From assembly GCA_973895155.1 (NCBI GenBank), contig OZ316892.1:19197457-19261456 (forward strand): a stretch of DNA of 64,000 bases. Reading direction: 5' to 3'. The stretch comes from Marsupella aquatica (taxonomy: Eukaryota; Plantae; Marchantiophyta). Both the position numbers and the translations under genes were made by a program. The notes under the pieces were generated by a model, which was not told the DNA's origin, searched no databases, and saw only the letters and a list, made by a program, of their open reading frames with translations. Numbering within the stretch: position 1 is the first letter of the stretch; every line of letters starts with the position of its first letter. Below, in pieces: positions 2,668-30,904 of this stretch.

Positions 2668-2806
2668 GAATTTTCCCTAAAGTTAATGTTGGGTACCACA
2701 TTATACAAAGGGAATTTGCCCTAAACTTAATGTTGGGTACCGTGTTATACAAGGGGAATTGCCCTAAACTTAATGCTGGGTATCATGCTATACAAGCAGA
2801 ATTTGC
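2668..2806. repeat. ~44-bp minisatellite (GAATTTGCCCTAAACTTAATGTTGGGTACC...), about 3 copies
   Basis: Units start at 2668, 2712, 2756 and partially at 2799; a related stretch occurs near 2300. Confidence 0.9.
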
Positions 2807-8150: not shown

Positions 8151-11100
8151 CCATTGGATTTTGTGATCCATGACAAGTCACTTTTTCCTGGCAGTTCAGG
8201 ATGTTTAAAAGGTGAAAAACGTTACGGTCACCTGCATGTAAGACCCTAAATCTTGCATATATGGAGATTGCCCTGAAAATTCTGGCTCTTAAAAGCCCCA
8301 CAATTTGGGGATAAAGCCTTGACTACAGGACCATGGGATTGTCTTGTGTTTTGCAACAGTAAGGATACAAAGGCCGTTGGGAACATTGGCCTCAGTTTCC
8401 CACTTAGGAAGCCACCTAGCCTGGGCAAATGAGGCGTTTCTGGCATGATTTTCTCCTTAAGTAATGTGTTGCCAGAACATTGGTTTAAGGCTGCATATTG
8501 AAGGGCCCCATATGTGCAAGACAACTTTAAGGCCCAGCTCGGATGTGAGCAACCCTTCACATTGCAGCCCTAATTCTCACACATGCCATCATATCACTGA
8601 GCATGAGATACCCGGCTGAACCTCCTCATGTGCCAGGCCTGACTGCAGAATCCTTGCATTCCTAAGGCAAGGGCTGGAAATTTTTCAGTCCTTGCAAGTC
8701 CCTACCTTTGATTGACAAATAAAGCAAAAAGGTGAGTTAGGAACTCAGCTGAGATCGGGCGCACACATGACACATTTCATATTTAAAGATTGAGTAGATA
8801 AGCTTTTTCCTAAACTGTTGTGAGGGCAAAAGGGCCGCAAAACACAGAGCCGCTCACATGCCAGGTGGCCCTAAGGGTGGCCTCTGAAGGTAGACCAGAC
8901 AAAAATATTTTGAAGAAGTTCAATAAATACAAATTCCTTACATGAATGAGCCAAAGTTTTTAAAAAGTTTGGACCACCTCCAAGACTTAGTCTATTTTAA
9001 GTGCTTGTTGACAGTGGGCACTAAGCATGTGCGGCTCAATTTTTCAGGAGCTTTTCTAAAGAGCTCAACTACCAAAAAAAAAAATCAACTAAATGTGCAC
9101 TGGAGTTCATATTCCTTTGTAATGTAACATTATTTTTACATTTCTGACCAAGTGAAACCTTTTCATCTTTTCCTAACAGAGTGTGCATGGATGAATCACA
9201 TTATGTTTTACCACAATGTGTATTTTTTGCATTGTTACCAAAGCACTACATTAAGGGTGGCTTTACAATACAGGGGCTTGTTGCTTCTTTCTAGTAAGCA
9301 CTACAGTTAAGGGTGGCCTTTACAAGACAAGGGCCAGTTGCTTCTTCTTATTCCCTGTGAGATTAAATCTTGAATTTGTAATGAGTGGAAAATGAAAGGG
9401 CAAGGTTTTTTCTGTGAATTTTGTAGATATTTTTGGCAAAAAGACCTCACTATAGGTACCCTACCGAGATCATATGCCGAGAGGTCCCACTACCTTCTTT
9501 TATTGTTCAAGTCTAAAGACTAAATTGTAGATAGATTTAGTGAAACCTGAAAAAATAAGCTTATGCATATTTTAAGAAATATTCTAAGCTTGCTTTTAAA
9601 GTTAGAAAATAAATTTCAGAGAGTTGTTTTGGATTATGCTGTAACCTGGACACGAAAGAAATTCACTTTTGGTATAGGAGCTACGTCAGTATTTCAACCT
9701 GAATGCCACTAAAGTATTTCATTACTTTTACTGACTATCAAAGGTTTATAGTTAGCATCATTTTTGGATTTTCTAACACATGTGATACCTCATATACAGT
9801 CAATATTTTGTTTCGATTTTGCCTGGGAGTGAGATCGAGCTTAGTGGGGATGACTTCACTAGGTTAGAGTACCAGAGGAAAGCCAAATTCATCCTGAAGA
9901 TAGAGTCACACTTTTGGGGGCTAAACAGGTGCAAATTTGTCAGATCCTTATCAAGGATTGGGGCTGGTTACCAATGCAAAGGTTCCATTTCTTTCTAGTT
10001 TTAGACCCTAGTTGCCAAATCTAAGTGCATTCCTTGAAACCCAAAAGATCTAACAATGCACATTAGATGTGTCAGATGGACCTCTTCCTGGAAGTGTCAC
10101 AAATTATCTTTCTCTGACACAATTCCTGCTCTGTCTGACACTGGTTTTTTGGTTGGGCCCTATCCTAGAGGAAGACTAGTGTAGGTGTGCCAAACTTCTT
10201 CCCATGAGTTGAAAGGGGGATGTCCTTATGGAATGTCTGATGGCCATGGTTGCTGAACACAAGTGAAGCATGTAACGGGGCCCACAAAAAGGCAGCCATA
10301 TATTAAGCTCACATGACAATATAGATGCATATTAATGCATAATCCTGTAGGACCAGGGAGGCAGTTGCCTGCCGTCCATAGCCATTGCTCGACGGTGATA
10401 GCTATATTTGTACACAATGTGAATGAGGCCTGACATGGAGCAGAAGTTGGGTTACCGGTAGAGAAGCAGAGTGGGGCTGTGCAGGTGAGATGTTCAATTC
10501 TGCTAAGCCGCAGAATTCTGTGGACGCAAACTCACCCCAAGGTGGGGTTCGTTCACATACTTTCACACTTAAAACAATTCAGTGTTGCAGGCAGGAAGTG
10601 CTATAATAATATCTTTTGCACTGAATCTCCCTATCTTGCGAGTGAGCAGGTGAGGGAGGGTATAAAATATGCAAAAATATGAGGGGGATGTAGAGGGCAA
10701 CAAGAGAAGGGAGGACGGTATGATCAAGGGAGGGCGGTCTAGAGGGGGAGGTGGAACAGAATGATAGGGTAGCCCTGAAACTACCCTTCATAAGGTGTTT
10801 GGGTTGTGTTTGGTGTTAATGGTTCATGTACAAAAACCTGTCGACACTAGATGCAATATACATATAACATACTTTCAAGTTGTTTGGGACTTGGCAAAGC
10901 ACCAGAAACCCAACCACAACCCACCAAAGCAAATGAGGGCACTCACAGCCCCTACGTAGATAGTGGTGCCAATAGAGAAGGAGCACCTAAAGCTCAAGGT
11001 CCATCAACCCCCATACAGTCTGGCAGTAAACTAAAACAATTGAGCCCTAAAATCCACATTTGCCTAACCTGTAGTTGTCACACCATTATGGGTGCTATTA

Positions 11101-11263
11101 GAGTATATTGTGTTGTCTGAGTTCAAAGTTTTCACATGTGTTCTATTTGAGCATTTTAGAATTTCTCTATGTTTGGAGGGTTAACTAGAACTAAGCCGTA
11201 GCCAAACAGGAGTGAGTAATCCATATACAAATAGTCACACATTGTTAAATAACTCTACTTGCA

Positions 11264-12657
11264 CTACAACTGCAAAACCTGCAAAGTAGCACGGTGTCTT
11301 GAGAAACTCTCCAAAGGAATCACTTTGGTAAAGGCATCAGCGGGATTGAGCTTTCCATCAATCTTGACTAGCTTAAAAGTTTTATCAGACACTACTTGCC
11401 TGATAAAATGGTACCTGATATCAATGTGCTTCACCCTGCTATCCATCACCTGGTTAGCAGCCAAGTGAAGAGCACTCTGACTATCACAGTTTAGAGACAT
11501 TTTGCCATGCTCTAAACCCATCTCCGCGATCAACTTGTCCAACCAAATTCCTTCCTTTGTTGCTTCTATTGCTGCTTCTGTAGTAGACTGAGATATACAT
11601 ACTCTGCTTCTGTAGTAGACTGAGATATCCACTTTTGCAAGGTAGATTTCCAACTGATACATCCTCCTCCAAGAGTAAATACAAAACCAGTTGTAGAGCT
11701 CCTTGTATCTAGACAGCCTCCATAGTCAGAATCTATATAGCCAACTAATGTTCTATCTGATCTTGCATCAAATAGTAACCCATAGTCCTGTGTACCCTTC
11801 ACATACCTGAGAATCCATTTCACAGCTTCCCAATGTACCTTCCCTGGATTTGACATGAATCTGCTAACCTTGCCCATCGCTAGGGCCAAGTCAGGCCTAA
11901 TACAAGTCATCAAATACATCAGACTGCCTACTGCTTTCTCATAAGGAATCTTAGCCATTAGACCTTTCTCCACAGCATCCATAGGAGAGAAAGCCGATGA
12001 TAACTTGAAATGTGAAGCTAAAGGAATACTCATTGGCTTACAGTTCTCCATGTTGAATCGTGCAAGTACCTTCCTTGCATACTTGCCTTGACTCAAGCAC
12101 AACTGTCCAGTATCAGAGTTCCTAAAAATCTCCATCCCTAAGATCCTCTTGGCCTTACCAAGATCCTTCATCATGAATTCAACACTCAATTTCGCCTTGA
12201 GACTATTAACCTCAGATTGATCTTTAGCCACAATCAGCATGTCATCCACATAGATCACCAGAATGATGAAATCAAATACATCATTCTTGACTGATTTTGT
12301 ATACACATAAGGATCATACACCATCCTTGTAAAACCTTGAGCAAGCATGAAATCATCAAACCGCTTGTTCCACTGTCTGGGAGATTGCTTCAATCCATAC
12401 AAGGACTTGAGCAATCTGTAAACTAAGTTCTCTTGGCCCTTCTTCATAAAGCCTAGTGGTTGTCTCATGAAGATCATCTCTTCCAAGTTCCCATAGAGAA
12501 AAGCAGTAATAACATCCATCTGATCCATCACCAAATTAAAAAACACAGCAAGTTGACACAAGATCTGAATTATGGAATACTTAGCCACCGGTGAAAATAC
12601 CTCATTGTAATCCACTCCTTTCTCCTGAGTGAATCCCTTGGCAACAATCCGTGCCTT
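11264..12657 (-). pseudogene. Copia reverse transcriptase and RNase H (frameshifted)
   Basis: Motifs KARIVAKGFTQ, QMDVITAFLYG, SLYGLKQSPRQW, YVDDMLI, GYIDSDYGG, STTEAEY, CDSQSA and KHIDIRYHFIR. A local duplication (CTGCTTCTGTAGTAGACTGAGATAT at 11572 and 11604) shifts the RNase H frame. Confidence 0.95.
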
Positions 12658-12980
12658 CACTAGAAGAATCCGAGGTGAACTGAGACCGCAATATATGACT
12701 CATTTTGGCTCATGTGACTTCATTGTGACTCAACGTGACTTGACCCACGCTGTGACCCTTGGAGTTGCAAAAGTTGAGACCAAAAAATGGAAGTCACTAT
12801 TGATACTGGGCTTTGCAACTTGCTTGATACCCATTTGTGACTGATCTGTGACTTTATTGTGGAGTCTAGCCTTGTTTCGACGTGACTGCAATATGACTTC
12901 AGCGAGTCACATCGTAAATCACATACATGACTTACCCGCATTCAACAACGACTAGCGTGTGACTATTTAGTGTCACAGGA
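12658..12980. repeat. CACTA subterminal repeats ((T)GTGACT / AGTCAC motifs in both orientations)
   Basis: Dense GTGAC(T/C) motifs at 12695-12975. Left GAGACCGCAATATATGACTC is mirrored by GAGTCGCATATTTATGAAGGTCTC near the right end (about 30828-30851). Confidence 0.8.
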
Positions 12981-13512
12981 GAGACCAATGGAGACCCTGG
13001 CCCGCGTCACACAACAGAACCATTTGGGACTCTATATACTCATGTTTATAACTAATAAGGATCACATGCAAGTTATAACCATGACTAATGAACACAGAGG
13101 GACAGTTCATAAGAAGAGAGAGCACTCGACATTACAATACATAGAAACCTGATGTTCTAACTTTAGAAATATAACACATTGAATACAAGAAATGAACATA
13201 GCATGAATGACATCCACATGAAACAAAGCATCATATAAGCAGATCCTACATAAAACATTCATAAGAATTAAACACAATCACAATCTTGCTAAAAAATGAA
13301 GATCATTTGAATTCCAATGGAATAGTTTACAATGTGATCAATGTAATTTAGACAAAACAGGAACTCATAATTGATGACTGTAGGATGAGATAACTGAAAG
13401 CACATGCATGATACTATGAATCTCCAAGAGGACATGATTCTTGTACTGTTTCTTGACATCTAAAATCTACATAACATGACTCGCACTACAAACAAATAAT
13501 GGCATGACATTG

Positions 13513-16500
13513 TTATGGATCCTCTATGAACTTGCTTGGCCATAATACCAAAGAACCTGCAGCATCTCCAAGTGTCTTTTGAGGAGGATCATCATTTGTG
13601 TTTGGAATGGGAAGGACAGCTTTAGGTTTCACTAGTAATGTGACTAACACTACTGAATAACCTGGGGGAATCCTCTTGCCATGGAACGTTGTGGAACCAA
13701 CCTGCACTCTGGCAAATCCTACTCGTGTTCCACTCTCATCAACAGCTAACAAGCCACTTTGTCCCTCAGCATTAGGTGCTTTCCCCACTTCCACCTTAGA
13801 TCTTTCTGCCAGCACTGTTCTTGGAGGTTTGTATGAAACCTTTGACGTGGCTCTGCTCCCACCAGCAGACTTGCTTCGTGTGCGCATGCTTCCTCTCTTC
13901 ACAGTAGTGAAGCTAGGCTCAGTAGGTTCCTCTGTTAGGACTGTCACAGTAGCAGGTTCATCACCTGGGAGTGTCATACCAACTAACTCTTTGGTTGGAT
14001 TTATCTCAACAAGAGGCACACCTGTCATTGAGAATGATACATTCTGCAAATCATTTATCTCTGCAATGGAGTCAAGATCTACATAGCATGAATCTGGCTC
14101 AATGGTATCATTGTCATGCTTGCTGATATCCTCATTTGCCCCAACATTGATATCATCCACTCCCTTGCCAATGTCATCCTCATCCAAACATGGTTGACTG
14201 CCCTCTGTCAAACAAGTTGCTTGTACAGACTGCAACTTTGTTGCCTCTAAATTACAGCGAGTATTTGCCAGGTTCTCATACTTCTTCTCTGTAGCACCTG
14301 TCTTATTCTCTATGGACACAACAACCACAATATATGTTACTGAAAATAACACATTCAACAAACAATGTCAATTCAAACTATACATTTAATAATCATATCC
14401 CACACAGTTGTAAAGGCCTTACCTTCAAGCCTACATGTCGTTGGCATGCCAGAAGAGTGCATCGACTTTGCCACCTCAAGTGGTGATGGTGGAACTCCTG
14501 CAGAATTGGAATCAATTTTATCTCTCACCGACACAACAGCTTCCATTAATGTCTTGAAGTTCACATGGAACAAGTCAGTCAATGAATTCAAACGTTCATT
14601 GATCTCTGGAAGACATGTTTCGACAGCCTTCAAACGACCACTTATCTCTGTAAGTGAAGATCCACCTCCCTACATGACACAGGGGTATAGGTTCAATCAC
14701 TCCATATGAAATGTTGGGCAATATATGCACAATCAATGTTATATACAGTGTACACCTGAAATTCAACGCAGGTCATTCAATTACCAATCAGAACTCATAT
14801 AACTTACATGCTTGGAGGATTCAGATGCACCCTCTTGAGCCCGGGTGTTCACAATTTCAGCCCTCAACTCTTCTTTTGAAGGGCTTTGCCCCAATTGGGC
14901 TTTCTGCACATGCATGGCAAACACAAGTTATCGATCAATATTCAGGGAACGTACACTAAAAAACAAAGTTTACATGTAGGGACAGTACACTAAAAAATAG
15001 TACATAGTGTAGCATAAATTACATAGCTAGGCCATTCATTCTTACCAAACGTTTAGCTGTCGGTGCAGTGCCGGTCCTTCCTGTCAGATTAGGGTTCTGA
15101 ACACTCAACCTGGCCTCGGTCATCTGTGAACTCTTCTTTTTTGAAGCATCTGTTACAAAATAAGCTACTAACCTTGCCCACACTTTATCATCACAACTGG
15201 CTGGTGGAGGCATATCTGGCTTCTCCCCACCTTCCTTCCAAGCCTTATGCATTCTCCACCTCTCTTGCTTGATAATTTTACCTGCTGTACTCTCTAGGCA
15301 ACCTATGTCCACGCCATCATCACTGCCCACATAATTCCATTTGGCAGCAACATTTTCACATACAGTCTTCCAATCTTTTGGATGCTGTTTTTTAAAATTA
15401 ATAACACTCACATCTAACCAACGCAATACTTCAGCTTTCAAATCAGCATGCCATCGGTTCTTGCGAGGACACTCAGCATCCACCCATTGTCTCTCATTCA
15501 ACTTTACGTTCCCTTTCTTTGTCACCTCCCCTCGTGCACTGCTCTCGGTAGTACTGGGCGTTGTATTGGCCACCCCTTCATTCACCCTACCTGGGGTTCT
15601 GAAGCCACCTGGGAAAATACAATGCCATTCATGCTTGAGAACTACATATAGCAGAATGGATGACGGCAACATTCAATGCTTCACTTCAAGAAAAATTCTT
15701 CAAACATACATACCTGTAGCTCTGCCTGTAGATGCCTGTGCAGGGACTGCACTCTGAAATTGTTGCGACCCTGGACCACCTGTCCAGCCTAGTACAGGGG
15801 CCGGATGATGTCACTTTCTAGGTATGTGTGTGCAAACATATGTACTGAAAACTAAGTACAAACTGTAGGAAAACAACTGAACATTCACCGACATACCTGT
15901 CCCCCTTCCGTGCTGCATCTGCATAGGGGCATTAGTGAATACTTGAGTCGATGGTTCGACTGTCCAACCTGCACACATACATTTTCTATCATTATACATG
16001 TGCAGAGTCCCCCCCACGTGAATGGACTCCACATATAATGAGTTCTTCCATTGCTGACAAGATCAGACATTACCTGCTCCTCTTCCAGCGTTTGTAGGTA
16101 CTGAATTTTGATATCCCTGCCAATTACCTTCACCACCTTCCCAACCTTGTTCATTCCACGACCCACCACCATCCTCCCAACCTGGTTCAACCCATGTCTG
16201 TCCTTGTGGACATTGCAACTGATCATTACTAGCATTTGCCCAATCAGGTTGGGCAGAATCTGCATGCAATGGCAGGTGGACAGAATTTCATGTTGTCTGA
16301 ATCCAATACATCCCAAACAATGTCAAAAATTGATATGCAGTCTGAAATTCAGGAGTGCCATGCCTTCACAAAGAACTGGCATATAGATATATACTCACAT
16401 CCCCACGGTTGAGGTGGACGTCCATACCCACGAGATTGTGGGTTTGGACCTGCTCTGCCTCTACCACGGGCATAACCTAGAGCTTGCCCCCTGCCATAGT

Positions 16501-17220
16501 ATTGGGCACCAGCCTGGGATCTACCACTACTACCACCTCGCCAACCTTGATCAGAGGTCAGCCCCCCCTGCTGGTATGGTGCATGCACAGGCTTCGAAGG
16601 CAAAACAGAACTGGCAGGACGCTGCATCACATCACCAACTACAATGTCAGGAACTAAGCAAGGTACATATGTGTAGTACTGAACATATGAAACCTCTAAA
16701 CAAGAGTTTTTAACTCAAAACCTTGTTGGGAAAACTACTTACATGTTTCTTTTGGGGCTGCTCTGCAATGTATTCATCTTCATAACCCCCATCCTCATCC
16801 ATTTCCTCTGGAAAATACTCATCATCTGCATCTTCTTGTCTAGTGTCTGCACCCACCTGTGCAGCATCAATGTCATCTCCACATTCTGCCATTGTAGGTA
16901 CGACCTTCTTGCTCAACCTGTCACTCCGACGCACAGGCCCAGAGATAGTGCTGGTCACCCTTCTTGCGTACTCCTTTTGTTTCTTTGAAAATGCTGTGGC
17001 TCTGCGACATTCCAATATGAGAATACAGTCACAATTTCAGTGCCACATTGAACTATTCATGTCACACAAACTCAGCGGAGGGGTGTAGTTGAGAATCGTT
17101 CCCTTACAATTCAGCCACATCCTTTTCCAGATCCAGTTCTGCGATTTTGGCTTTCACGTATGCTCGTTGTTCCATAGCTTTCCTTTCATACTCACACATC
17201 TCTGTGTCACTCTGTTCCAT
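13513..17220 (-). CDS. CACTA TnpA/ORF2-like multi-exon gene (exon boundaries approximate)
   Basis: Starts MEQSDTEMCEYERKAMEQRAYVKAKIAELDL. Several GT-AG flanked short exons. PTTA/Transposase_24-like core at 15019-15672 (PPASCDDKVWARLVAYF...KKKSSQMTEARLSVQNPNLTGRTG). C-terminal Tnp1-like motif FHGKRIPPGYSVVLV...LPIP...TLGDAAGSLVLWP at 13513-13720. Confidence 0.78.
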
Positions 17221-17376
17221 CCTACTGGACCACAAAAACATGTCATCTATGGTCACCCCGTATAACACAATGCAACCACAATCACCAGGCATCCATCCAT
17301 ACATCTGTGTTGCTTCAGAATTACTTTATTACACATCCTTCCCCTCACTAATGTCTATGCAAACAATTCACATTAC

Positions 17377-20300
17377 TCATGGCACAGGCACACTGTTGGC
17401 ATCTGCATCTCTGAATTCGCCTCCTTCAGCAAATGCATCTACCCTTGTCACAGGAATGAAGTCCCCGCTATCATGAACTACAGGCACTTGGTCTGAACGC
17501 CGACGATCAAAGGCACTATGAGAGTGTAAATGAAACTCAAGGTTTGATCCTTCCATCCGGCGTTGCCTGGCCTGTTTATGACACACTACACGCCAACCTG
17601 GGGAGTCTTCCACATCCAGGAAGAAAGCTTGCTCCACCTGACTAGGAAACACAAATGGCTCAGACCATTCGGGCAATTTCCCTCTGAAATTGGCCAGCAA
17701 GAAACCATCGTTGTCTCTCTTCATGGTAGCCCTGTTACCAAGCCAATCCTGCCGCACCCATGAACCTTTCATAAGAATCACAGGACTGGACACCGCCCCA
17801 TAGTCCAGAGCCCATATGTCAACTAATTCTCCCACATATCCCATCTCCATCCAGGCCCTGTCGTGATTGTGGCTCTGTTGCTCAAATACAGTGATGAGCC
17901 CGCAGTCATTCGTCACCCTGTAGGCACTGTCACCATCCTTCACTCGGAAGTGATTCCCATATGCTCTCATCCGTTTGTAAGTCTTCACTTTCAGGCTAGG
18001 GGCATTAGACAGTAGGTAAACATCTGCATCCATGTCTGGGTGGGTCTCGTGATGCTCTCTAATTGCCACTCTGATCCACTCCATGAAACCTGGAAAAGTT
18101 GTTCCTGCAGTGGGATGGGCCGCCTTCAATGACTCATACTCCCTGAACGAACAACCACACAGCATTAGCTTGGGTAAACATGAACAGGCTGAAGGAGAAA
18201 ACCACACGAACACAACATTTAAGCTCATGAACTGGATTATAGCACATGTATGCACTCACTGTATCCAGGGTTCCATCACCACAGTGTTGTGCAATACAAA
18301 GTCATGTGCCAAGTCTCTCATAGATATGGTCAGGTTCTTTGTGGTTGCAGCCCCTTCCAGTACTTCACCTACCACCCCTTCCTCCTCATCAGAATTCCAC
18401 ACCCTGGTCTTCACATGCTCATATTGTGCTATGTATTCGGTCAGAAATCCCAGAGTCTCATCCTTGATGTAACCTTTAGCCATGCTTGCTTCAGGTTTGT
18501 AATATGTTCTCACGTGACCTTTGAGTAGCTTCATGTACCGTTCCAAAGGGTACAACCAACGAGCACTCATAGGCCCAAATTGGTGTAGCTCTTCCACAAC
18601 ATGGACAAGTAGGTGGGTCATGACATCAAAAAATGCGGGAGGAAAATAAATCTCCAGGTCACACAGCACCTGAGCGACATCTTCTATCAGTTGTGGGAAG
18701 TGTGTTTCATCCCAAACCTTCACACAAATACGACGAAACACATCACTGAGTCGCATGATCACAGTACGAACAGGCTTCTGCAACAGGCCCCTCAAGCATA
18801 AAGGCAACACCTGTTGCATCAACATATGGTAGTCATGGCTTTTCATACTACCAAGCTTTCTAGTCATGATATGCTTCTTGAAAGCACTGCCATAGTTTGA
18901 AGGAACCTTCAAAGAACTCAACCTCTGCACAAATAGTTCCCACTCTGTGTCTGTCAGAACATAGGGCGCTTGGTACTTCAAGAGCACATCAGCTCTGTGG
19001 GCATGTGGCCTCAACCAAAGATGGGGTTTCATTCCCCTCTGTTCAAGATCCAATCTCACTGAACCAGTGTCTTTCTCTCCACACAAGAATCTGAGTAGAC
19101 TCTCACAAATATTCTTTTCAATGTGCATAACATCAATGTTATGTTTGCTTGGCTCAAACTCCTGCATCGTTGCAATGCAAAAGCGTCAGGAAATGCCTCA
19201 AGTTTAGTCTCTCTCTTCGAAATGAATGCACATGCTCTGAACCAAAACATGTATCCCAATTAGCATCAACTCCAAGAGGCTTACCCTCCAGTACTTGAGC
19301 TCCAAGTCCAATATGCTCAGTCTTTTTACACCATATCGCTTTATTGGATCACTCACTCCATCTTCCCTGCCCCCTCGTTTGATATAGTCATCCCTCAGTG
19401 CTCCCCACTGCCTGATCTCCTCTTTGGTCACTCGTGCCGGGGGTCCACGTTGCTCAATCTCATTGCCAAAGTGTGCAATCAGTGCCTGTCTTTCTCTGTA
19501 AGGGTGATCTGTCTTCAGAAAACGACGATGGCCCATGTATATCACTTTCTGCAGGGCTCTGGAGTACTCACTGGTGACATTGCGCCCACAGATAGTACAA
19601 GCACAATATCCTTTTGTTGTTTGGCCTGATATCATCCCATGGGCTGGGTAGTCAGCTATAGTCAGAATGACAATGGCTCTAAGGATGAATGGGTTTAACC
19701 TCCCAAGCCTCTGTAGGACATCATATGTGAGAACTCCTTCCTCCCAAAGCTTTCTCAATTCCTCCACTAGGGGAGCCAGAAACACATCTATGTTGGCAGA
19801 TACAGCACTGTCTGGCCCTGGTATCAGTAGGACCATCAGAACAAAAAATCGCTTTGTAGTCATCCAAGGAGGAAGGTTATAATTCAAAATAGTTACAGGC
19901 CAGCATGAAAATTTGTTGTTCTTGTCTCCAAATGGGTTTACCCCATCCAATGACAGCCCAAGTCTGACATTCCTCGGCTCAGCAGCAAATTCGGGATACA
20001 TCTCATCTATGAGTTTCCATTGCCTTGAATCTGCAGCATGTCGTTGTAGCCCATCATCACTTTTCTTGTCAGTTGCCCAAGTCATCATCTCCGAGATGGC
20101 ACGGCTTCTGAACATCCGCTGAAGTCTGGGAATGAGTGGAAAATGACGAAGTACCTTGGCGGGAACCATAGACTTTCCTGAGTTCCGATACCTGTGCTTC
20201 CCACACTTAGGGCATGTCAACGATTCTTTATACTCCTTTCTGAAAAGAACATGCCCATCAGGACAGGCATGGATCGAATCATAGTTCAATCCAAGATTAG

Positions 20301-21108
20301 ATATGCATCTTTTTGCCTCGTACATGTTCTTGGGCAAAATATTACCATCTGGTAGCACAGTTGTTCGCAAGAATGCCAACAACTCAGAAACCAAAACGTT
20401 GGGGACATTGTGGTTGCCGCAAATGTTCAGGAACATGATGACAAATCCCAGTTTAGAACATTTGCTACCGGGGTACAAAGACTTCCTGCCTTCCTGTATT
20501 TGCAGGGGAGAGCCAAACATCCCATCATGCCCAGGGGTTTCCTGCCCTATCTCAAACTCATCAAGAGGCTCTTCGACAGGGGGCACACTTGCATCTGCAG
20601 CCGTATCCTCTTCATTGTCCAGCCCATCATGAAATGCATCCAAGTCTTGGAAGATGTCTCTCACCATCTCTTCCACATGAATTCCTTCGTCACGTGGTGC
20701 TGCCTGAGCACCATCCCGTTGGAGAGCTGACAACCCACAGAGACCAGCTACAACATTTTCAAATGCACCAGGCAGAACCTCACTTGCCCGTCTTGCAGCA
20801 TTGGCAGCATCAAATTCTAACCTCCACTCCTCGTCGGAAGAATCTTCCTCTGCAGGATCATTCCAAACTCGATGTCGTGGATCTCTTCCATGAACCGCGA
20901 TATGCCGCCAAACCTCATTCAGACCCCTGGTACGGGATCCTTGGCAGATTGCACAAGGACATCTCATCCTACTGGCTCCTGAAAGTCTGGTTCGTAACCT
21001 TTCACGCTGCCAAAGCTTATTATCATGGCGTGATATCCTTGTGGGATGATGCAAAGGCAGTGCCTGTGCCCTGGGCTGGGTCTGGGGAGGGTGGTGACCA
21101 GGGTGCAT
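17377..21108 (-). CDS. CACTA TNP2/TnpD transposase, 3 exons (21108-19285, 19161-18260, 18142-17377), about 1163 aa
   Basis: N-terminal CPCAIC; IHACPDGHVLF...CPKCGKHRY; LRHFPLIPRLQRMF; RNVRLGLSLDGVNPF; ADYPAHG; YMGHRRFL; DVMHIEKN; MKSHDYH; FPPAFFDVMTHLLVH; RWLYPLERYM (DUF4218); EPFVFPSQVEQAFF (DUF4216). GT-AG introns join in frame with no stop. Confidence 0.93.
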
Positions 21109-21541
21109 TGTAACAGGCTGGGAGCTCTGCAGTCATGGACAGCAGTGAACAAGGATGCCTAATGGTGGTATTTGTGTTCCATATATCCCTGACTGTATCT
21201 GCCAAAAGAGTTAACATAACGTGTACTAAATTCTCACAAACCCTAAACCACCCCAAAAGAAAAAAACAGGTTCGCAAGTAGTGTACCTATTGTCAAGTGA
21301 ATGACACAAAATTTCTAAATGTTGGAGGGTGTCACCACCTCCTCCGCTGTCCTCAAATGTACCGCCTCTGCATGTACGTTTACAGTGACACCCCCAGGCA
21401 GCAGGAAACAACAATCCGCCAACAGTAAAATAAGCCCAACTGCCACCAACCATAACAAGGTACATTAGTTCAAAGATCACATTTATTTCAATGATCTGAT
21501 TTATACAAAAAAACTTGTGTCCAAACTGATGCTACTACTCC

Positions 21542-22420
21542 TCACTCTGATTCAGAATCGCTAATGACCCATTCCTCACTTGTTGTCTCATAGTCCTCTC
21601 TGTAAGGATCCTGACCCTTCCGTGGCCAGGCCTCAAAAAGATCATAGTCCATTGGGTTTTGACGCTTCCCAGCTGCTACTGATTCCACAAGCCAAGCATA
21701 TGAAACCACAAACACATTATGGGACATGACATAAAAGCGAATGTCTCCCTTCCCAAACTTGCGGCAGGCTTTGGGATATGACTTAGTAATGACATGAGTG
21801 GTGTCCTCTGTTATATTCTCCTCCACTGTCCCACCTAGGTCAAGCACTGTGGACTTGTACACTTTGCACTTAACCTCTCCAATTCCCGCCTCCACAAATA
21901 CCATGCTCAGCCCTTTCAGAATGGGGGTTGGTTGCTTCGTCTCCTCAGCCAACATACTCTTCAGCCTTGTAGAGCTCTGTCCTTTGTTGAGTACAGGTCC
22001 ATATTAGAGATCAGCAAGCCGTGCCTTTGCTTCCCAGACTTCTTGTTCAGCCCAAGCTGATGCAGTAGCTTCTTCATCCTCCCACAACTCATATTGCTCA
22101 GTATCCTGTACAATCTTATGTGCTATGGAATCTGTGATCCAAGAGGCCTCAACTACTTTTAGGCCTTGCTTAGTAATTGCAGAATTCATGTAGGACCATG
22201 ACCACTTCTTTATCACTGATAGCCATGTCCCTGCAACAACATGTGTAGTCTCTGGAGTGATGTCCTGAACTACAGTGCCATGGAGCTCAGAGAATCGTTT
22301 CTGTACAGTTGGCCAATGCACTTTGGTCAACCCATGCTGGCCATGGACCAAAATCGCTCTGACCCCTGTAAACACTGCTGGGTGGTCACACTTTCTACGT
22401 TTACCAGGCTCCATGTACAC
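21542..22420 (-). pseudogene. Tandem BRCT-domain ORF (DNA polymerase lambda-type BRCT x2) with a single in-frame TAA
   Basis: ORFs 22004-22420 and 21542-21955 are in the same frame, separated only by TAA at 22004-22006. Each has BRCT hallmarks (F/L-x-G-V/L, GG/HG-TV, TTHVV/TTHVI, W-I/L-x-D/E-S, Y-x-L). Confidence 0.85.
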
Positions 22421-23007
22421 ACACCCTACGTGATGACAGTGAATTTTGGAAGAATGGGTTCACCTGACAATACAAGGACAACAAAATTCCTGCTTTTTGA
22501 GTTGATCTGGCCCACTGGTGCTCAGGTCCGATTTTGATAGGTACAAGGGATATGTCACACAATACGTACTAGGCACCTGCACGGATGCAGGACATTGTTT
22601 GAATATATACTACAAAATCCATATCCGTGGTGAAATGAAGTGCAACCAACTTGTCATGGCACATACATATTTTGTTGTAAAGGAGGATACATTCAATGAC
22701 AAACTTATAGGGCAATTTGATTAATTGCATGCCTGATAATTTATACGCTTACAACTTAGAAGTCCTGTTTTAATTTAGCAGTGTGATGAAAGTGTTTATG
22801 AAAATGACCACTCAGCCTAAATACTTCCAAGAAGGCTTGTAAGGATAAGTTTGTATAGGCATGTACCCAGCCACTGACGCCAGAGCACAAGATAAGTGCT
22901 GCCTATATAAACTCGCCTACCCAACTCCTTTTCAAAATTGGAATCTCTGCAATCTCAAAAAATAGTACATCCACATCAGGTGCACTGTGCATGTACAATG
23001 TTCAGCT

Positions 23008-23688
23008 TCACAGCCAAGATATGTGATCTCTCACAGGAGTGCGCGAGGTAGGATCAATGGCATGGCGATGACAATAAAATATCCATCGATCAACACCATG
23101 TGCAGAGTGATCATAGATTTCTCTGTCACAAGCATAACCCTCTGCTTGATGATCTTTCAGGCAATGATAGTGCCACATAGTGGGACACCTAGCACAGTGG
23201 ACTATGTCAGTCCAGTAGTCATCATCATGCTCACCACATGCCTTGCACCTATGAAGTGGGCAAGCTGTGGCATGAGCAGGCAAACACTCAAAACAGAAAA
23301 ATCTCACACAAAAACGGTCTGGACATTTCCTAACATTTGCTGCAGCATCAACAGAGCCCTCATAGGACCCCAACTTCCCACACTGTGCACACTTAGCCTG
23401 CTTCTCCAAACAATCAGTGCACATCCAGTCTCCCTGGTGTGTTGACGGGAGGCCCACCCCTGGACAGTTGTTTTCTGCAGCAAGGTCAGACTCCGGGTTG
23501 AGGTGGAAATGCCTCATGCAAGGGCCCTCACAAATGACCAGGCCCCCACCATCGTCACAAATGGCACAACAATGAGCTGCCTTCTGGAAAATCTGACTTG
23601 CAGAGAAGTTAGTAGCATCTGCCCCAAGTACACCTGTGTTTCTCACCTCTGTCACACGCTTTTTGGCTTGAATTTTAGGCCGTGCCAT
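23008..23688 (-). CDS. EDM2-type composite PHD finger protein (stand-alone), 226 aa
   Basis: CAICDDGGGLVICEGPCMRHFH...WMCTDC...CAQCGKLGS...CPLHRCKAC...CARCPTMWHYHCL...IFYCHRHAIDPTSRTPVRDH. Order and tail match the PHD region of plant EDM2 as I recall it (CAICDNGGEILCCEGSCLRSFH...CPLHKC...CRRCPKSYHRKCL...IYCQEHEIDEELLTPVRDH). Intact ORF with a basic N-terminus. Confidence 0.88.
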   Translation of the reverse strand: MARPKIQAKKRVTEVRNTGVLGADATNFSASQIFQKAAHCCAICDDGGGLVICEGPCMRHFHLNPESDLAAENNCPGVGLPSTHQGDWMCTDCLEKQAKCAQCGKLGSYEGSVDAAANVRKCPDRFCVRFFCFECLPAHATACPLHRCKACGEHDDDYWTDIVHCARCPTMWHYHCLKDHQAEGYACDREIYDHSAHGVDRWIFYCHRHAIDPTSRTPVRDHISWL

Positions 23689-23699
23689 GCCTGCGCATG

Positions 23700-23843
23700 A
23701 GATAGACTCTACAATTTAGCAGACTGCACAGAAAGTAATATATATTTAGCATTTAAGGTACAAAGGCATTTAGATAGACTCTACAATTTAGCAGACTGCA
23801 CAGAAAGTAAAATATATTTAGCATTTAAGGTACAAAGGCATTT
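23700..23843. repeat. 72-bp tandem duplication just upstream of the PHD ORF
   Basis: AGATAGACTCTACAATTTAGC...GGCATTT at 23700-23771 and 23772-23843, one mismatch. Confidence 0.95.
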
Positions 23844-24458
23844 GCTACTGCAATGAATTGGAATGGCCACACAAGGATGCAGAGCACACATACTTTTGGT
23901 ATGTTGAGCCCACACACAAAACTGATCCCCTAATACAATTTCTCCACCAACACCTCAATTTTAATTGTGGCTATGATTCACCAAAGGAGATCTGCAACAA
24001 CATTTCATGCATTTGAATCACATACAATAGTCGTGACATGTAAAACAGGCATTCTTCGAAGAGGATTGGTATGAAGCAGTGTCATAAGGGTTGAAATTTA
24101 TACATCCTAAATAGGTTATGATAGTGGCTGAGACAAATAAGTGAGGCATAAATCATTTTGCATATTATCACATGGCCCATTAATTCATTCAACGTTGCAA
24201 TGTTCACCAGGTTAAAGCAGTCATGAAAGCAGTCTTTCAATAGAGACTTTTATGCGAGTTTGCTAGCCTCTTAAATTAGGATATTTTGCTTAGTGCAGGC
24301 ATAATAGGATATAAGTTATATACTGTTGACCCTAAACCCTGGACCCAAAATTGCTCATACATCAAAATTTTAAGTAAATATCCTCTGTGTTGAAGTCAGA
24401 GTGTTAAGCTATAGGTCAATGGTATCTGGTCTGTGCATGCGGTGTGACAAGTGGTCCT

Positions 24459-24908
24459 CTAGAGCATGTGATCCAAACATGTGTAGACACCAAAGTCACC
24501 GGTGGTGGGGTCTGGGAGGGCAGGACAAGTGACATCACCAGGCACACTGCAGGATGGCGAGTGGTTCCAAATGATACATTGTGCTCTATGCAAAAATCGG
24601 CATCCAAGAGAACGGTCATCCAATTCTGGGCCAGAAGCCCTACAGGCAGGACAGTCATATTGGCAACTGTGTACACACCCTTGGCACCTAATTTGTGGCG
24701 GGTCATGTACAAGAGACACAAATACCAAGGATGTCGGGAAGGGTACTGAAGCAAGTAGAGGCCGGCTGTAGTTGTTCCTGGAAACAACAGGGTACTCAAA
24801 GTACCATGCAGACTGGGCTGGAAGGATCCCAAGTCTGACATACTCAAGGCGCAACATCTCTGCCTTGCGTGCAAGTCGCACATGTTCAGCGTTGCGGGTC
24901 CTCACCAT
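24459..24908 (-). CDS. Hypothetical Cys/His-rich (putative Zn-binding) CACTA accessory protein, 149 aa
   Basis: ATG-initiated and co-oriented with the other cargo ORFs; contains CQGCVHSCQYDCPAC...CRFLHRAQC...TCLDH. No family recognised. Confidence 0.45.
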   Translation of the reverse strand: MVRTRNAEHVRLARKAEMLRLEYVRLGILPAQSAWYFEYPVVSRNNYSRPLLASVPFPTSLVFVSLVHDPPQIRCQGCVHSCQYDCPACRASGPELDDRSLGCRFLHRAQCIIWNHSPSCSVPGDVTCPALPDPTTGDFGVYTCLDHML

Positions 24909-25903
24909 AAGTGTTGCTTTTGTTGTGATGTCCTCTGTTCACGTCCTTTGATGAGCAAGGTGAGCAGGAGGTCGACTTGCCTCGCCAACAGCAACCACCT
25001 AAACTAATCAGTTCCCACTCAACTACAGGTCATAGTATACACATAGCATGAAACGTGCATAGTACATATTTGATTCTGAGTTTATGAGTTTCCTAAGACA
25101 AAGAGCTTGGTGATAAACCCATATTCTCGATGGACATGTATATCAATCGTATTAAAATCCTGTTTTTTCATCCAGAAAGACCGAAAGTCTCACCTTGCAG
25201 GTTGCAGCAGAGAGAAAATTCACTGGTTGTCGTGTTGTGCAAGTGAACCTCCACTGATGCCCCCGGTGTAGCCCCTCAGATGCAGGTGACACTTACCAAC
25301 TCCCAAGTTGCCTGGTCTAACAGAAAATGCTTATATCTTCAGAACTTTATAGAGCAAGTACATGATCACATACTTCTGGATCTATTCATATTTGGAACTC
25401 TTGCCAACTACAACTCCCATTATGCACAAGCTCACATCAACAGAGAAAAATACAGAATGCATACTTACTATGGCTCTAAGCACCTTCACTACCTTGTTGA
25501 ACCCAGTCCTGAAGTCTTTTCAGCGTGTTTGTTGTGCTGTCTCCTTTGGCACCCAACACCTTAGTCCTTGATGTAACAGAATGCGATTTTACAAGTTAGA
25601 TGCTTTGGAACCTTCTATGGTCTTAGCTGAATTGATGTCATCGTAAGTGGTGAAAGACAAGGAAGACGAAAGCTGGTTGAAGAGCTGTGGACAACACACT
25701 AGCATGAAGTGCTTCAACCAATCCACTGCCAAACGGAACTCTTACACAGTCACATTCTTTCAGTAAACAGAAACTCAATCAAACTTCATAATCAAAGTAC
25801 AGACTCTGAAGGACCAAAGGAGGATGTTGTGAGTTTCTCTGTTGTTTAATGTGTTACCCTTCTAGTTTCGAAGTTAGCAAATGCTGAATAATGTGTCTAC
25901 CAG

Positions 25904-26243
25904 ATCTTCGAAAAGAAGCCCACCACAATTAAGAACTTTGGTATCTGGGTGAGGTATCAGAGTTGTACAGGTTATCCCAACATGTACAAGAAATATTGTG
26001 ATACCACATTAAACAACCACACAGCAGATGTATGATGAGATGGCTTCTTGTCATAGAGTTCGGTTCCCTTGCATCCAGATCATCAAGACTACGACAGTCC
26101 CTGTCTCTCTGTGCAAGCGAGAAAGTACCAAGCAGTTCCATGATTCAAAGATCAAGTTCCCCTTGACGTACCGCAAGATTCAACCTCCATCGCGAAAGCT
26201 AAAGACGACTTACAAGGCCACCAAGCCCAACACATTTGTTTGA
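25904..26243 (+). pseudogene. RPL18A: Captured last exon of 60S ribosomal protein L18a (eL20), frameshifted
   Basis: After acceptor CTACCAG: [37 protein letters not shown], then a frameshift near 26015-26025, then [22 protein letters not shown]...[18 protein letters not shown]...[19 protein letters not shown]. This is the plant RPL18a C-terminus. Upstream exons are absent. Confidence 0.93.
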
Positions 26244-28082
26244 GTAGTGCGGGTGTAGGTTCCCAATTTTGAAACAATTTGGCTCATTTTATGTCCCGAG
26301 GGACTCCAGGAGTTTATGTATTGAGTTTCTAGGTCAAGATGCTTAATATAAGGAAATTCAATTATCACCTCGTTCCCAACTTCTATTAATTGAATATACA
26401 CAAGCTGGAAGCAAGAAGACAAGCCACAATCTAGCATCTTAGCCAAACACAATCGTCCCGACAAAGCAAAACTCAGCTGGACAGAAGTCACTCGGATCCA
26501 CAAAAAATTGAAGATTCACCTCCAAGCCGGAGGCCGATCACTTCAGTACAGCAGCTTCTGGACGGAACAAACTCTGCTCAGCCCCACAAAAACACAAATG
26601 TTAAGGCTCCAAGTCAGAGCTCACAAACAGAAACTCAGATAAATAACATTCAAAATCTGTCCAGGTTTGTGCAAAGTGTACATATTCATTCTTCTGGAAT
26701 GAACACGCAATGCATACATCGCCTAGACACAGTCATTATAAATCATTGGGCAATTGGGGACCACTAAGCAGGTGTGTTCCTATTTCGAGGCTACAAGAAA
26801 GGATAGAGTGACACCAAACTGAAGAGTACACCAAAAGAAAAACAGCAAGAACCAAAGTCAATAATGTGTGGATATTTTGCACATGGGAAGTTCCCCTGAA
26901 GAAGCACCAGTTGCTAACATTGTCACCCGAACCACACCCAGTTTATTACCTCAATGTCTTCAGCCTCAATATCCAATCCTCAGCCCCCTGGTGCTTCCGT
27001 GTTTGTTCTGAAAATTTCTGTGATGAAATAATTATTCAATACATTCAATAGCAAAGAGAACTCAATCACAAAAGAAAAATAGTTAGTGTGAATGCTAATT
27101 TCTCAACACTTAACTAAATTCAAACCACCAATTCAAGTAGTAAGTTTCAAAAACTTGCCTTTACATGAAGAGAAACCAATTGGCCATGCATGTTACTAAA
27201 GCAATAAACAAATAATTAGGCTCAACCCCGGGCTCAACACACAGGCAAACTACTCGAAACATGCTGCTGAGAAGTAACATTTTTTGAATGTCAGACTATG
27301 TGTAAGTGCCATGATCGTGCTCCTACGTTTCACAAGGAGGGCTGGCCCGAAAGGGAGAAGCAACAATGTGGAGTCTATACACGTAGCACAAATCCCAGTT
27401 TAGAAGGGTGGATGAAGTTCAGACAAGAGTTCAGAACTTGCCATTTGAGATTGCCAATCTGAACTTCACATTCAGACAGGACTTCATCCAGTTCAGGAGT
27501 TCAGATAGGAGTTCAGACAATCTGAAGAGGACTTTGGACTTGAATGAGGGACAGCGTGGCCATATAGTTATCCTTGTGGCCTTCAGCTGCGTGTCTCAGG
27601 CTGAATTTCACTTTCCAGTTTCGAGAGTTCTGAAGGTCTAGTTTTAGTAACTTCCTCCTGACTCGACTTGGGAGCATTCTCCCTATTTGCTAGCTTGTAG
27701 TTAGCTTTGACTCCTGTGAGCTTAGTTGACGACCCTCTTGAGATATTAACAATTAGAACAAACACAAGTTGTCAAGACAGATTCCACCGGAGCAAAAAGT
27801 CCAAAATCAGGTGAAAGAAAACCTAAGGAAAGTCCATAAGAACGAAAGTAGGAAGGCAGGTGCACGGGCCACCGAGAAAAGTAAAGGATGCATGTGATTA
27901 GTGGGGAGGGATCTTAGCAAAAATAGGGGAAAGCAAGGGAACTTGCTGCTAAAATCAGCTGAACGATTGCACGGTTCCTATAAATTTAGTGGACCTTAAG
28001 GCCGTCTGTTCAGCCCCCCACCCCATTGCCAGAGCACGGGGCACAAGGCATGTTCTGATACAGGGAGGAGCAAAACAGTCAT

Positions 28083-29128
28083 GTCAAGCAAGAAATGTGG
28101 AGAGACCAATCAGTAAGCAAAAATAGGGGAGAACATACATACATGATCAGCAGCAGCAGGAAACAAGAAAGATGATTTTGGGTGGCATCTTAGGGTCGGG
28201 GACACCACTGCAACACCGGGACTTAGGATATGAGTTGTTCTTAATCTGCTAGTAGCATCCGGCAGGCCGGCGACCCATGGCAAAAGGGCAGAGCAACAAT
28301 CCGCTAAAACTACCGAGTCTCACCTTTGCGCTACTGACTGTCACCTTTGTCCAAGGTAGCTAGTAATAGCAAGTTGAAGTCCCGCTCCAAGTTGTCGGCT
28401 TCCACTCCAAGCTCCCTAAAAGATTGTGGCCTCAGGTCCAAGTCGTTAGCTCGCACGCGCAACTCCCTAAACCTACACACAGCGGAAGCTTAGCTCACCA
28501 ACAACTTGCAGAAACAATGACCTCCCCTCTGAAACTGATAAAAACACCTGAATACAAATAGTGAAGCACGAGGACAGAACAGGGAGAAGCGTTTTGCAGT
28601 TTGGGACGACAATGCTAGGAGTGTATACACTTCGGGCAACAGGGAGGTCCAATAATAGTTTGAATCTGACGGATGAAGCTCTAGGCGAATGAGCTCCAGG
28701 AGATTGGGTGCATGATTGAGTAGGCAATTGTAACAGCAGGCACCTGGCGATTGAAGGAAGCAGCATTCGGCAATGGACCTAGGCAGCTCGCGAATTTTGC
28801 TCAGCAGCGATGTCACCTAGACCCTAAACACGCAATGCATACATCACCTAGACAACTATACTTGCAGCCACGAGGTGAGTCCGCGATAGGGGATTGAAGG
28901 AAGCAGCAAGTCAAGCAAGAAGCGTGGAGAGACCAATCAGTAAGCAAAAATAGGGGAGAATAGACATACATCAGCAGCAGCAGGAAACAAGAAAGATGAT
29001 ACTCTGTTCCATCTTAGAGTCGGGGACACTACTGCAACACCGGGACTTAGGATATGACTTGTTTTTAAACTGGAGATAGCATCCAGCAGGCCGGCGACCC
29101 ATGCCAAAAGGGCAGAGCAGCAATCCGC
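28083..29128. repeat. ~220-bp dispersed direct repeat inside the CACTA (about 28083-28305 and 28910-29128)
   Basis: GTCAAGCAAGAA..GTGGAGAGACCAATCAGTAAGCAAAAATAGGGGAGAA...CACTGCAACACCGGGACTTAGGATATGA...GGCCGGCGACCCATG.CAAAAGGGCAGAGCA.CAATCCGC is present twice. Confidence 0.9.
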
Positions 29129-30904
29129 CATGTAGCGATAGGCGAGAGCAGCGATTACGACGATGAAAGATGGTCAAAGCTGAAGCAAAACCCCTAAAGA
29201 TGCAGCTTGGCCATACTCTCTTTCCTCACCTCATAGCGCTAGGCATTCAACCTCCCTCTTCAATGAACCTCACAACAGCTTGAAGGTCGATAGATTTTAC
29301 CTCGTCTCCTGAGCAGAAACGTCTGCATTAGCTAAACAGAGCCCGGAACAGAGCTATCGCATTTAGCCTCCCGACTCCAAAATTGAACGCAACACAACCT
29401 CCAACTCCCAATGGCAGCTCAGTAGGTTGATCAGCTCGGTCAATGCAGGTCAGTCGACCTCAATAGCCACACTAGAAGCTCACCGCAAGTCACTCAAAGG
29501 TCAGACTAGAAGCTCCGCCGCCTTCACACCGTAGCAAAAAACAATGAGACCAATATCGAGCAAGGCGACCCTGTTTGAATATTTGGCGACCATCAGGCTC
29601 CACCCCTCCTTTCTCGCTACCGTTCCCCCATGTGATGGTTAAGCTTCTGAGGACACAATCAATCGCACAAATGTAGCTTAAAGCAGGACCTCACTAAGCA
29701 GACTATTGGTTAGGACCTTATAGACATAGAGATAGATAGGTCAATGCAACCTTACTTGGGCCGATGCAGCATGTCTCTTCACAATGTGAAGCAGCGCAGC
29801 ATTCCTCCACCTAGCTCGCAATGATCCTCCGCCTTGCTTGCAGTAACCAGCCTCCGCCTAGCTAGTTTGCACTGTCACGGCTGCAACTTTTTGTGCAATG
29901 ACTTGGCCCTCCTACCAACTACGAGCTCCCAAAAGTATGTCGAGCAGATGTACACTCAGGCACCACCTCGTAGAGCTCAACTCCAAGTCGGCAGCTCTCA
30001 CTTGAAACTCAATAGCAGCTTAGCTCACCAGCAGGTTGAAAAGCGACAATGGACTCCCCTCAAAACTGATTGGCAGACCTCCACACTGACGCTCGTAGCA
30101 GGCCCAATCCTAAACACATTTGCACCCTAAAGTCCAGTCGCGCTCAAACACTTTCAAACGACCCTGCAGGAAGTTCGCGAAGAGTGCAGCTGGAATGAAG
30201 GTCGTCGACTCCCAATTTCCCTCGCAAAACCAACCTCTGCGGCACACTGACCCTGAACACTTAGGGCAAGTAGTACCCCCAAAATCTCTCGCAAAACCAA
30301 CCTCCAAGGTACACTGACCCTGAGGGAAAGTAGTACCCCTCACATGTGGGCAGCCATCGAGTGACTTAGCAAACAGGTTGGTTTGGACATAAAAGAACCA
30401 ATGCAAATGACTTAGCAAAAAGTTCAATGTGGGGAGAGTGCACTTTGGTCAAGAACAAGGCCAAATATAGTCAGGTATGAATCCACATTATAAGTGAAAG
30501 TACCCACCATTCTGATGAAAACCCCCATATTTATACCCATTATATTTGGACTTATTGAACCATGAGTGTGCAATATGTAGTTGCACCGGGAGTTGCATAT
30601 TAGGGATTGGCATCCGAAATTGGCTAATGGGGTATGCATGCTGACGGAATTTTAAAAAATGATGTCCAATTCATATTGCACTATTGTGGAGTAACTAACA
30701 TAACTTACCTATTTCTTACTTACTAGTGTTACAATAGCGACATTGGATAAAGTTGTAAGCATGACTTCCCACAACCTCACCAAAACTTAGTTGGTATGAT
30801 GTAACTAACATGACACCCACAAACTTGGAGTCGCATATTTATGAAGGTCTCGCACAAGTCACATAGGGGAGGGTCTCAGAATGGGTGGTTTTCTTCTAGT
30901 GCTT

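Follow-up and report, generated by a model that had tools for sequence, protein, structure and literature searches.

What role do three small open reading frames (ORFs) play directly in front of the transposase gene of a plant CACTA transposon? The question is raised by a 64,000-nucleotide stretch of the genome of the liverwort Marsupella aquatica (GenBank assembly GCA_973895155.1, contig OZ316892.1, positions 19,197,457 to 19,261,456 of the forward strand; the whole stretch is referred to here as the window, and all coordinates are those of the window). In it, ORFs for a Cys/His-rich protein, a PHD-finger protein of the EDM2 type and a tandem-BRCT protein form a cassette within a CACTA element. 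We conclude that they are a real, selected accessory gene set of a CACTA family, that the PHD protein has an unexpected feature, an N-terminal tip resembling the tail of histone H3, and that the functions proposed for them are readings of the sequence. Purifying selection on the ORFs and their residence in the element, taken jointly, are highly probable. The main features are as follows.

12655–12657, unstranded: left copy of the CTT target-site duplication (from the flanks and the skip joint)
12658–12668, + strand: terminal inverted repeat CACTAGAAGAA, 3′ end of the element
12680–13020, unstranded: AGTCAC/GTCACA words clustered near the terminus, likely sites for TnpA-type binding
13513–14367, − strand: 284-codon open frame, likely the last exon of the TnpA-like gene (no Pfam match)
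15019–15672, − strand: TnpA-like exon, Transposase_24 (PF03004, E 1.5e-4, below cut-off)
17377–21108, − strand: TNP2/TnpD transposase, introns 19162–19284 and 18143–18259 (PF02992 at E 2e-70, PF13963, DUF4218, DUF4216)
21542–22414, − strand: tandem-BRCT gene, 290 codons (both halves pass the PF00533 cut-off)
23008–23688, − strand: stand-alone EDM2-type triple-PHD gene, 226 amino acids (aa)
23700–23843, unstranded: 72-bp tandem duplication directly upstream of the PHD ATG
24459–24908, − strand: Cys/His-rich gene, 149 aa, no known family
30891–30901, − strand: terminal inverted repeat, 5′ end of the element
30902–30904, unstranded: right copy of the CTT target-site duplication, where a Copia reverse transcriptase (RT) is interrupted

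Ends and organization of the element

The element is 18,244 bp long and has 11-bp terminal inverted repeats (TIRs), CACTAGAAGAA, at both ends; the window contains just two matches to this sequence, at 12658–12668 (+) and 30891–30901 (−), and they face inward. Contigs that skip 12655–30901, with a joint from 12654 to 30902 corresponding to the empty site, are present in all four sequencing runs compared, and the ends are therefore real. The flanks are the two halves of one Copia RT, with RVT_2, SH3 and gag matches among them. The initial annotation had described a CACTA element bounded by TIRs and a target duplication, and the paired ends, the CTT on both sides and the empty-site contigs bear this out. 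The short CACT(A/G)-type TIRs, the 3-bp duplication, the TNP2 transposase motifs and a TnpA-like second gene with subterminal repeats are all those of CACTA/EnSpm; nine of the element's 17 AGTCAC words lie within its left 400 bp, which include a 20-bp tandem at 12696–12741. The spliced transposase model, with two GT-AG introns, is 1,163 aa long without a stop, and the DDE, C(2)C and H(3-4)H motifs, as defined in PMC12730594, can be placed in it.

All three cassette ORFs are intronless and lie on the − strand upstream of the transposase, separated by spacers of 770 bp (Cys/His to PHD), 593 bp (PHD to BRCT) and 433 bp (BRCT to the transposase ATG). This is the arrangement first reported, three co-oriented ORFs 5′ of TNP2 with one stop in total; the tandem BRCT likewise stands, and its length is corrected from 292 to 290 codons, with one TAA at codon 137. 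TATA-like words occur in each cassette spacer. For possible splicing to a shared leader, the candidate acceptors before PHD, BRCT and TNP2 rank 124, 29 and 29 among 266 YAG sites, not better than the two real acceptors (124 and 70). A nested element with its own termini had been raised as an alternative; none of the inverted pairs checked, the 25 longest of 113, resembles termini bracketing the cassette.

Selection on the three reading frames

Each of the three proteins has intact relatives. Word searches yielded five for the PHD protein (217–245 aa, 37–82% identity, from 123 candidates), two for the BRCT protein (294 and 295 aa, 60 and 54% identity, both reading through codon 137, from 1,247 candidates) and two for the Cys/His protein (150 and 200 aa, 56 and 54% identity, from 23 candidates). 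When neutral change was simulated, the PHD frame was open in 0 of 300 cases at 53% and at 38% identity, and in 40 and 28 of 300 at 82% and 75%; the BRCT frame was open in 0 of 300 at both 60% and 54%; and the Cys/His frame was open in 12 of 300 at 56%, and in none of 300 with indels. Because simulated frames are seldom or never open and the relatives are intact and of the same length, the ORFs are selected genes and not fresh captures. The relatives come from protein searches, which favor open frames, so the simulation shows selection over most of the path and not in every copy. The PHD cysteines are retained at 18–22 of 22 positions, and other residues at 55 of 183 to 158 of 199; in the Cys/His protein retention is modest, with seven of ten cysteines common to both relatives.

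That captured host sequence is present in this element is clear from a further feature.

25892–26243, + strand: RPL18a (eL20) 3′ coding fragment, captured, frameshifted and antisense to the cassette

As initially annotated, this piece is close to its host counterpart (plant eL20, E 2.5e-33) and has a frame change, near 26013–26035. Taken alone it fits a Pack-CACTA fragment, being host-like, partial, frameshifted and antisense, and the cassette ORFs could similarly be passive cargo, recently captured and decaying pieces of host genes; the stop in BRCT, the truncations and frameshifts in several relatives and the in-frame TAG of one distant PHD locus agree with this. The three ORFs differ from such fragments, however, in being whole, intronless and conserved, with their own starts and stops, and distant from any host protein found; no close host source is apparent, intact relatives exist at 37–60% identity, and the PHD protein sits beyond a long separate branch. 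We regard passive cargo as very improbable.

Copies of the cassette and its residence in the element

Nine of the 11 sequencing runs listed, which have three organism labels, contain part of the stretch, and five contain at least half of its words; the best of them may derive from the source of the window itself. In four of four runs, contigs (1,332 to 17,213 of them, from 99+ to <90% alike) cover each of the element's 30 bins, and these variant contigs over the whole element show that the cassette is not confined to this copy. In run X6 a single 1,381-nt contig joins the 5′ end of the transposase to BRCT; over 922 positions it differs at 44 letters and has one gap, and its source copy is about 5% diverged. 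In two contig comparisons all indel rows listed within the cassette interval fall in spacers (7/7 and 9/9); they represent about eight events, and spacers make up 47% of the interval. Low-depth, near-identical pieces of 151 nt in runs X7–X9 were not counted as evidence for other species, uncovered parts in X8 and X9 were not taken as absence, and summed depths, which are higher over the PHD and Cys/His genes in several runs, are unable to rank genes and were not used.

These data establish an old three-gene CACTA unit for close subfamilies only. The single distant locus with DNA, L001, is a 1.9-kb contig with an intronless PHD ORF (41% identity, one in-frame TAG), and neither the 528 bp upstream nor the 667 bp downstream shows homology to the transposase, BRCT or Cys/His genes. 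The expected link of the relatives to TNP2 holds in close subfamilies, where a contig bridges it, and is not seen on the short contig of L001. The genes could be mobile accessories common to several transposon families and loosely tied to the CACTA lineage, the cassette being a local assembly; no CACTA linkage is seen for distant relatives, contigs less than 95% alike cover the PHD gene in runs X4 and X6, and fungal TET/JBP genes are described as moving among DNA transposon superfamilies (PMC12730594). Order and linkage nevertheless hold in close subfamilies, through contigs bridging BRCT to the transposase and a spacer to the 3′ end of the Cys/His gene, and the BRCT and Cys/His relatives have diverged to a similar 54–60%, so that loose association seems improbable.

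At positions 1–530 of L001, just upstream of the PHD ORF, there is a decayed frame on the opposite strand that by eye resembles an RNase H piece of a retroelement, with no Pfam match. Pattern searches gave 93 matches in viral contigs, none confirmed, and 147 in metagenome contigs, one confirmed.

The observed-to-expected CG ratio of the cassette (0.23–0.40) is like that of the transposase (0.36) and the Copia flanks (0.17–0.39), and below that of the RPL18a segment (0.46). Depletion on a par with transposon DNA points to long residence in methylated DNA, with no sign of lasting escape. As a separate observation, all transposon DNA in the window is depleted in CG and CCG and has an excess of CAG/CTG, which suggests a host with little CWG methylation.

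A further alternative is that the element took up the three ORFs whole from a plant lineage not yet sampled, where they are ordinary genes conserved for the host. The relatives come without genomic context and short EDM2-like host proteins exist, as this would predict. Against it, NCBI and UniRef are not recorded as the source of any of the 21 short relatives looked up (P0001–P0007, P0009–P0014, P0016, P0018, P0050, P0068, P0107, P0127, P0145 and P0158), members are often broken, the depletion of CG equals that of transposon DNA, and whole, co-oriented capture of three unrelated host genes is unlikely; we consider this origin very improbable. The proposal that the ORFs are old, selected and owned by the element is instead upheld by the intact relatives, the contig cover, the simulations and the separate PHD branch.

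A derived EDM2-type PHD protein

Three NSD/EDM2-type PHD models of Pfam match the PHD ORF with E values of 5e-5 to 4e-3, all below the curated cut-offs. Comparison with a Calypogeia protein (hhalign 99.9%, 35% identity) shows the three-finger module and the EDM2 C-terminal motif to be present; NSD2/3 and Selaginella EDM2 are among the matches, and the best-scoring named relatives are liverwort and Selaginella proteins. A profile search found 564 proteins; among the best 150, the highest scores belong to short stand-alone modules, of which several are truncated, frameshifted or run into unrelated sequence, and long EDM2-like host proteins come next. Among 26 hits scanned for domains none has a transposase domain and four, all long hosts, have DNMT1-RFD; the 226-aa protein has neither RFD nor the long EDM2 C-terminal region.

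In a tree of 31 rows (11 full-length stand-alone proteins and 20 chosen hosts, omitting truncated rows and, from a wider quick tree, its two longest branches), the 11 stand-alone rows form one side of a branch with support 99/98 and length 1.12; the wider quick tree places five other short rows among hosts. As to the donor lineage, grouping with short liverwort proteins is neither rejected nor supported (approximately unbiased test, p-AU 0.364). Two features separate the stand-alone proteins from the hosts. First, a compact finger 2, with about 20 residues fewer, is found in 13/20 stand-alone proteins and 0/114 long hosts, whereas the host form is found in 107/114 hosts and 0/20 stand-alone proteins. 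Second, 66/68 hosts but 0/19 stand-alone proteins have an acidic residue within the five positions preceding the first Cys (pattern-matched rows; 46 and 1 were unmatched, respectively). In other PHD fingers the acidic position before the first Cys binds unmethylated H3K4. These features mark the PHD protein as a derived EDM2-type module that stands alone and occupies its own branch.

An H3-like N terminus

The start of the PHD protein has a further peculiarity, which the initial annotation did not note.

23659–23685, − strand: N-terminal nonapeptide ARPKIQAKK with H3-tail-like spacing (sequence reading)

After the start Met the residues read A1-R2-P-K4-I-Q-A7-K-K9, with the spacing of the H3 tail, and they lie about 40 residues from finger 1. 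Residue 7 of the H3 tail is also alanine. The other matching residues, A1, R2, K4 and K9, are named for H3 in PMC9640981. An A-R-x-K start is present in 8 of the 20 stand-alone proteins with a usable Met (the best Met being taken; one row has none) and a lysine at position 9 in 6 of the 20, compared with an A-R-x-K start in three of the 127 long hosts. When the first 15 residues of six chosen members are shuffled, the H3-like score is reached with P values of 0.0001–0.006. Among the eight carriers, residues 1–9 agree at 3–7 of nine positions (three by selection), and residues 10–18 at 0–2 of nine in 27 of 28 pairs. The 22-residue tip has no match in PDB or Pfam, and modeling of a two-copy complex of the PHD protein gave no usable answer (score 0.00).

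Because the acidic stretch is lost and the N terminus is H3-like, plain heterochromatin reading by this protein seems doubtful. It forms the core of the main rival explanation, in which the genes are selected and the PHD module truly reads chromatin and would steer the transpososome to heterochromatin or other transposons, the basic tip being just a nuclear import signal. In finger 1 all zinc ligands and the acidic D-D/E-G-G and C-D-G segments are conserved, the finger is net acidic in 9/11 members, and the present copy sits within a Copia RT. Yet the acidic residues before the first Cys that nearly all hosts have are absent from every stand-alone protein scored, a single insertion site tells little in a repeat-rich window, and the H3-like motif is anchored at residue 1. 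We consider the steering role unlikely.

Six EDM2-like proteins of Calypogeia, Marchantia, Riccia and Selaginella (P0017, P0019, P0020, P0022, P0023 and P0029) open with M-A-R-(T/V), like H3; a self-binding tip in basal-plant EDM2 is possible.

The BRCT and Cys/His proteins

The two BRCT repeats are 24% identical and are joined by a linker of about 50 residues. Phosphopeptide-binding tandem BRCTs of the BRCA1 type have a Ser/Thr-Gly and Thr-x-Lys pocket in the first repeat and a short linker; the phosphate-pocket Ser and Lys positions seem not to be retained here, in an alignment of low confidence. Repeat 2 may resemble the BRCT of plant Pol lambda. Hits in the Atlas are below 0.9 and the predicted fold has a pLDDT of 35. 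Plant Pol lambda uses its BRCT to bind LIG4 and XRCC4 and has a role at excision sites (PMC4444747); a part for the BRCT protein in end joining is plausible. Given the stop in the present copy, the element would either receive BRCT protein in trans or manage without it for a time. In one contig of run X6, 114 bp of the BRCT linker (21924–22039), the part that contains this stop, are skipped or replaced without a change of frame.

The initial annotation called the 149-aa ORF a zinc finger, a label that no Pfam, fold or Atlas match supports. The Cys/His protein has no Pfam match, no Foldseek match at E <0.001, a best Z of 4.0 among 48,161 chains and no usable Atlas hit, a lack of matches that does not show novelty; its predicted model has a pLDDT of 60. 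It is probably a small metal-binding partner.

Proposed roles

The reading we favor, at somewhat better than even confidence for the whole, is that a multicopy CACTA family has long kept the three ORFs as accessory genes, the PHD protein serving as a mimic or decoy and the BRCT protein as a repair dock. The PHD protein would be a cut-down EDM2 reader whose histone-like tip diverts host H3-tail enzymes and readers from the element, acting on the host H3K9me2/EDM2 pathway and so allowing the element to be transcribed. The BRCT pair would dock on host break-repair proteins at excision or insertion sites, as an adaptor for the repair of transposition breaks. Taken singly, the repair-adaptor role is a possibility we hold at a little under even, and the decoy or mimic role is more tentative still.

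Besides the bias of the protein searches, the isolation of L001 and the lack of lasting escape from methylation noted above, several observations weigh against the favored reading. First, contigs skip parts of the ORFs (21416–21624 and 21924–22039 in X6, 23416–23489 in X7, 23944–24766 in X4), and synonymous substitutions number 4/8 in the cassette versus 12/15 in transposase exon 1, a count from the best-supported rows only that is not a nonsynonymous-to-synonymous rate ratio (dN/dS). Second, the TAA of the BRCT gene (22004–22006) lies in the linker of a copy whose transposase is open and whose target duplication is perfect, and the best solved matches of the BRCT protein are weak and tied (Rtt107 at E 9e-4, BRCA1 at 3e-3, LIG4 at 4e-3) and so point to no end-joining protein in particular. 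Third, 12 of the 20 stand-alone proteins have no A-R-x-K, the motif was spotted after the fact among rows that are related, and nuclear import could explain a basic tip. Finally, an M-A-R start also occurs in 18 of 127 long hosts, including those of Marchantia, Riccia, Calypogeia and Selaginella; since hosts start in this way too, the tip was perhaps inherited and then sharpened.

Other features of the window

Between 24950 and 30901, L18A is the sole Pfam domain found, and a search of Rfam gave no match. The 5′ region of the element contains one listed feature.

28080–29128, unstranded: direct repeats about 825 bp apart (repeat families D1 and D6)

The region 26800–30500, with these repeats, many contig joints and short coiled-coil-like frames (28331–28489, − strand) without Pfam match, may be a second decayed capture. 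Outside the element, the following were noted.

2826–2871 and 7721–7766: inverted arms that may be the ends of the Harbinger-like element
3965–6821: Harbinger-like element, with a DDE_Tnp_4 transposase (488 aa, − strand) facing a 287-aa ORF, Myb-like by eye
11264–33787: Copia-type retrotransposon (gag, SH3, RT) into which the CACTA element is inserted
39380–40822: 480-aa ORF containing internal repeats, without Pfam match, perhaps an accessory gene of a retrotransposon
46042–50511: long interspersed element (LINE) ORF1-like frame (DUF4283, 728 aa), then a 588-aa frame without match
52828–53487: first exon of a host thymidine kinase gene

Relation to known systems and significance

The element resembles other CACTA/EnSpm transposons, such as maize En/Spm and Arabidopsis SPM with TnpD and TnpA, in its CACTA termini, 3-bp duplication and TNP2 followed by a head-to-tail TnpA-like gene, and differs in the three further genes upstream of the transposase. 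Separate tandem genes are reported for SPM2, 5, 6 and 9 (PMC13547354), and TnpA is itself described as an anti-silencing factor (bioRxiv 10.64898/2026.08.24.746577). The words PHD and BRCT do not occur in the main text of either paper; the latter surveys 962 Spm proteins and mentions other accessory domains, unnamed in its text, which may bear on novelty. A full-text literature search, not extended to Repbase or to histone mimicry in transposons, found no paper pairing CACTA with BRCT or with a PHD finger and BRCT, and among the matches listed for BRCT and DNA transposons none concerns a BRCT encoded by an element, judging by title and abstract opening. A PHD finger is known within Rehavkus transposases (PMC6446971).

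Two other groups of transposons offer parallels. The VANC and KIU/Ulp1 genes of VANDAL Mutator-like elements are, similarly, host-derived chromatin or protease domains kept as separate conserved element genes (PMC13317346, PMC13547354); the superfamily and domains are different, however, and VANC is a sequence-specific DNA binder causing hypomethylation, whereas no DNA-binding domain was identified in the cassette, which has a long methylated history. Fungal TET/JBP dioxygenases, present in EnSpm, Plavaka and other DNA transposons, are accessory genes of an anti-silencing type inside complete CMC elements (PMC12730594), but they are catalytic demethylases in fungi, and the plant cassette encodes what appear to be non-catalytic binding modules.

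Of host proteins, EDM2 (of the ASI1-AIPP1-EDM2 complex) and the NSD-type proteins have the same three-finger module and C-terminal motif. The PHD ORF departs from EDM2 in having no RFD or other EDM2 domain, a finger 2 about 20 residues shorter, no acidic stretch and an H3-like tip. Short H3-tail-like motifs are also carried by non-histone proteins, the histone mimics influenza NS1, DNA ligase 1 and G9a; here the putative mimic occupies the free N terminus of a transposon-encoded protein that also carries a PHD module. Host EDM2 binds H3K9me2, and with its help transcripts that span heterochromatin reach full length (PMC7529245, PMC9910501; see also PMC3632883), and PHD pockets grip A1, R2 and K4 of H3, although one plant PHD does not bind H3 (PMC9640981).

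In its boldest form, the proposal is that a CACTA lineage assembled a counter-silencing and repair kit from host parts, an H3-mimicking EDM2-type PHD, a BRCT that recruits end joining and a new Cys/His fold, and kept them together over deep time. Taken whole we place this on the unlikely side; if true, transposons would have in this kit their own equivalent of the histone mimicry of viruses. Few CACTA accessory proteins are known beyond TnpA and the fungal TET/JBP proteins, and such proteins are the means by which transposons fight or use host chromatin and repair. An EDM2-derived module and a BRCT pair point to two host pathways, H3K9me2-linked transcript processing and break repair. Both proteins are small and expressible, and because basal-plant EDM2-like proteins share the M-A-R start, they may reveal which parts of EDM2 matter.

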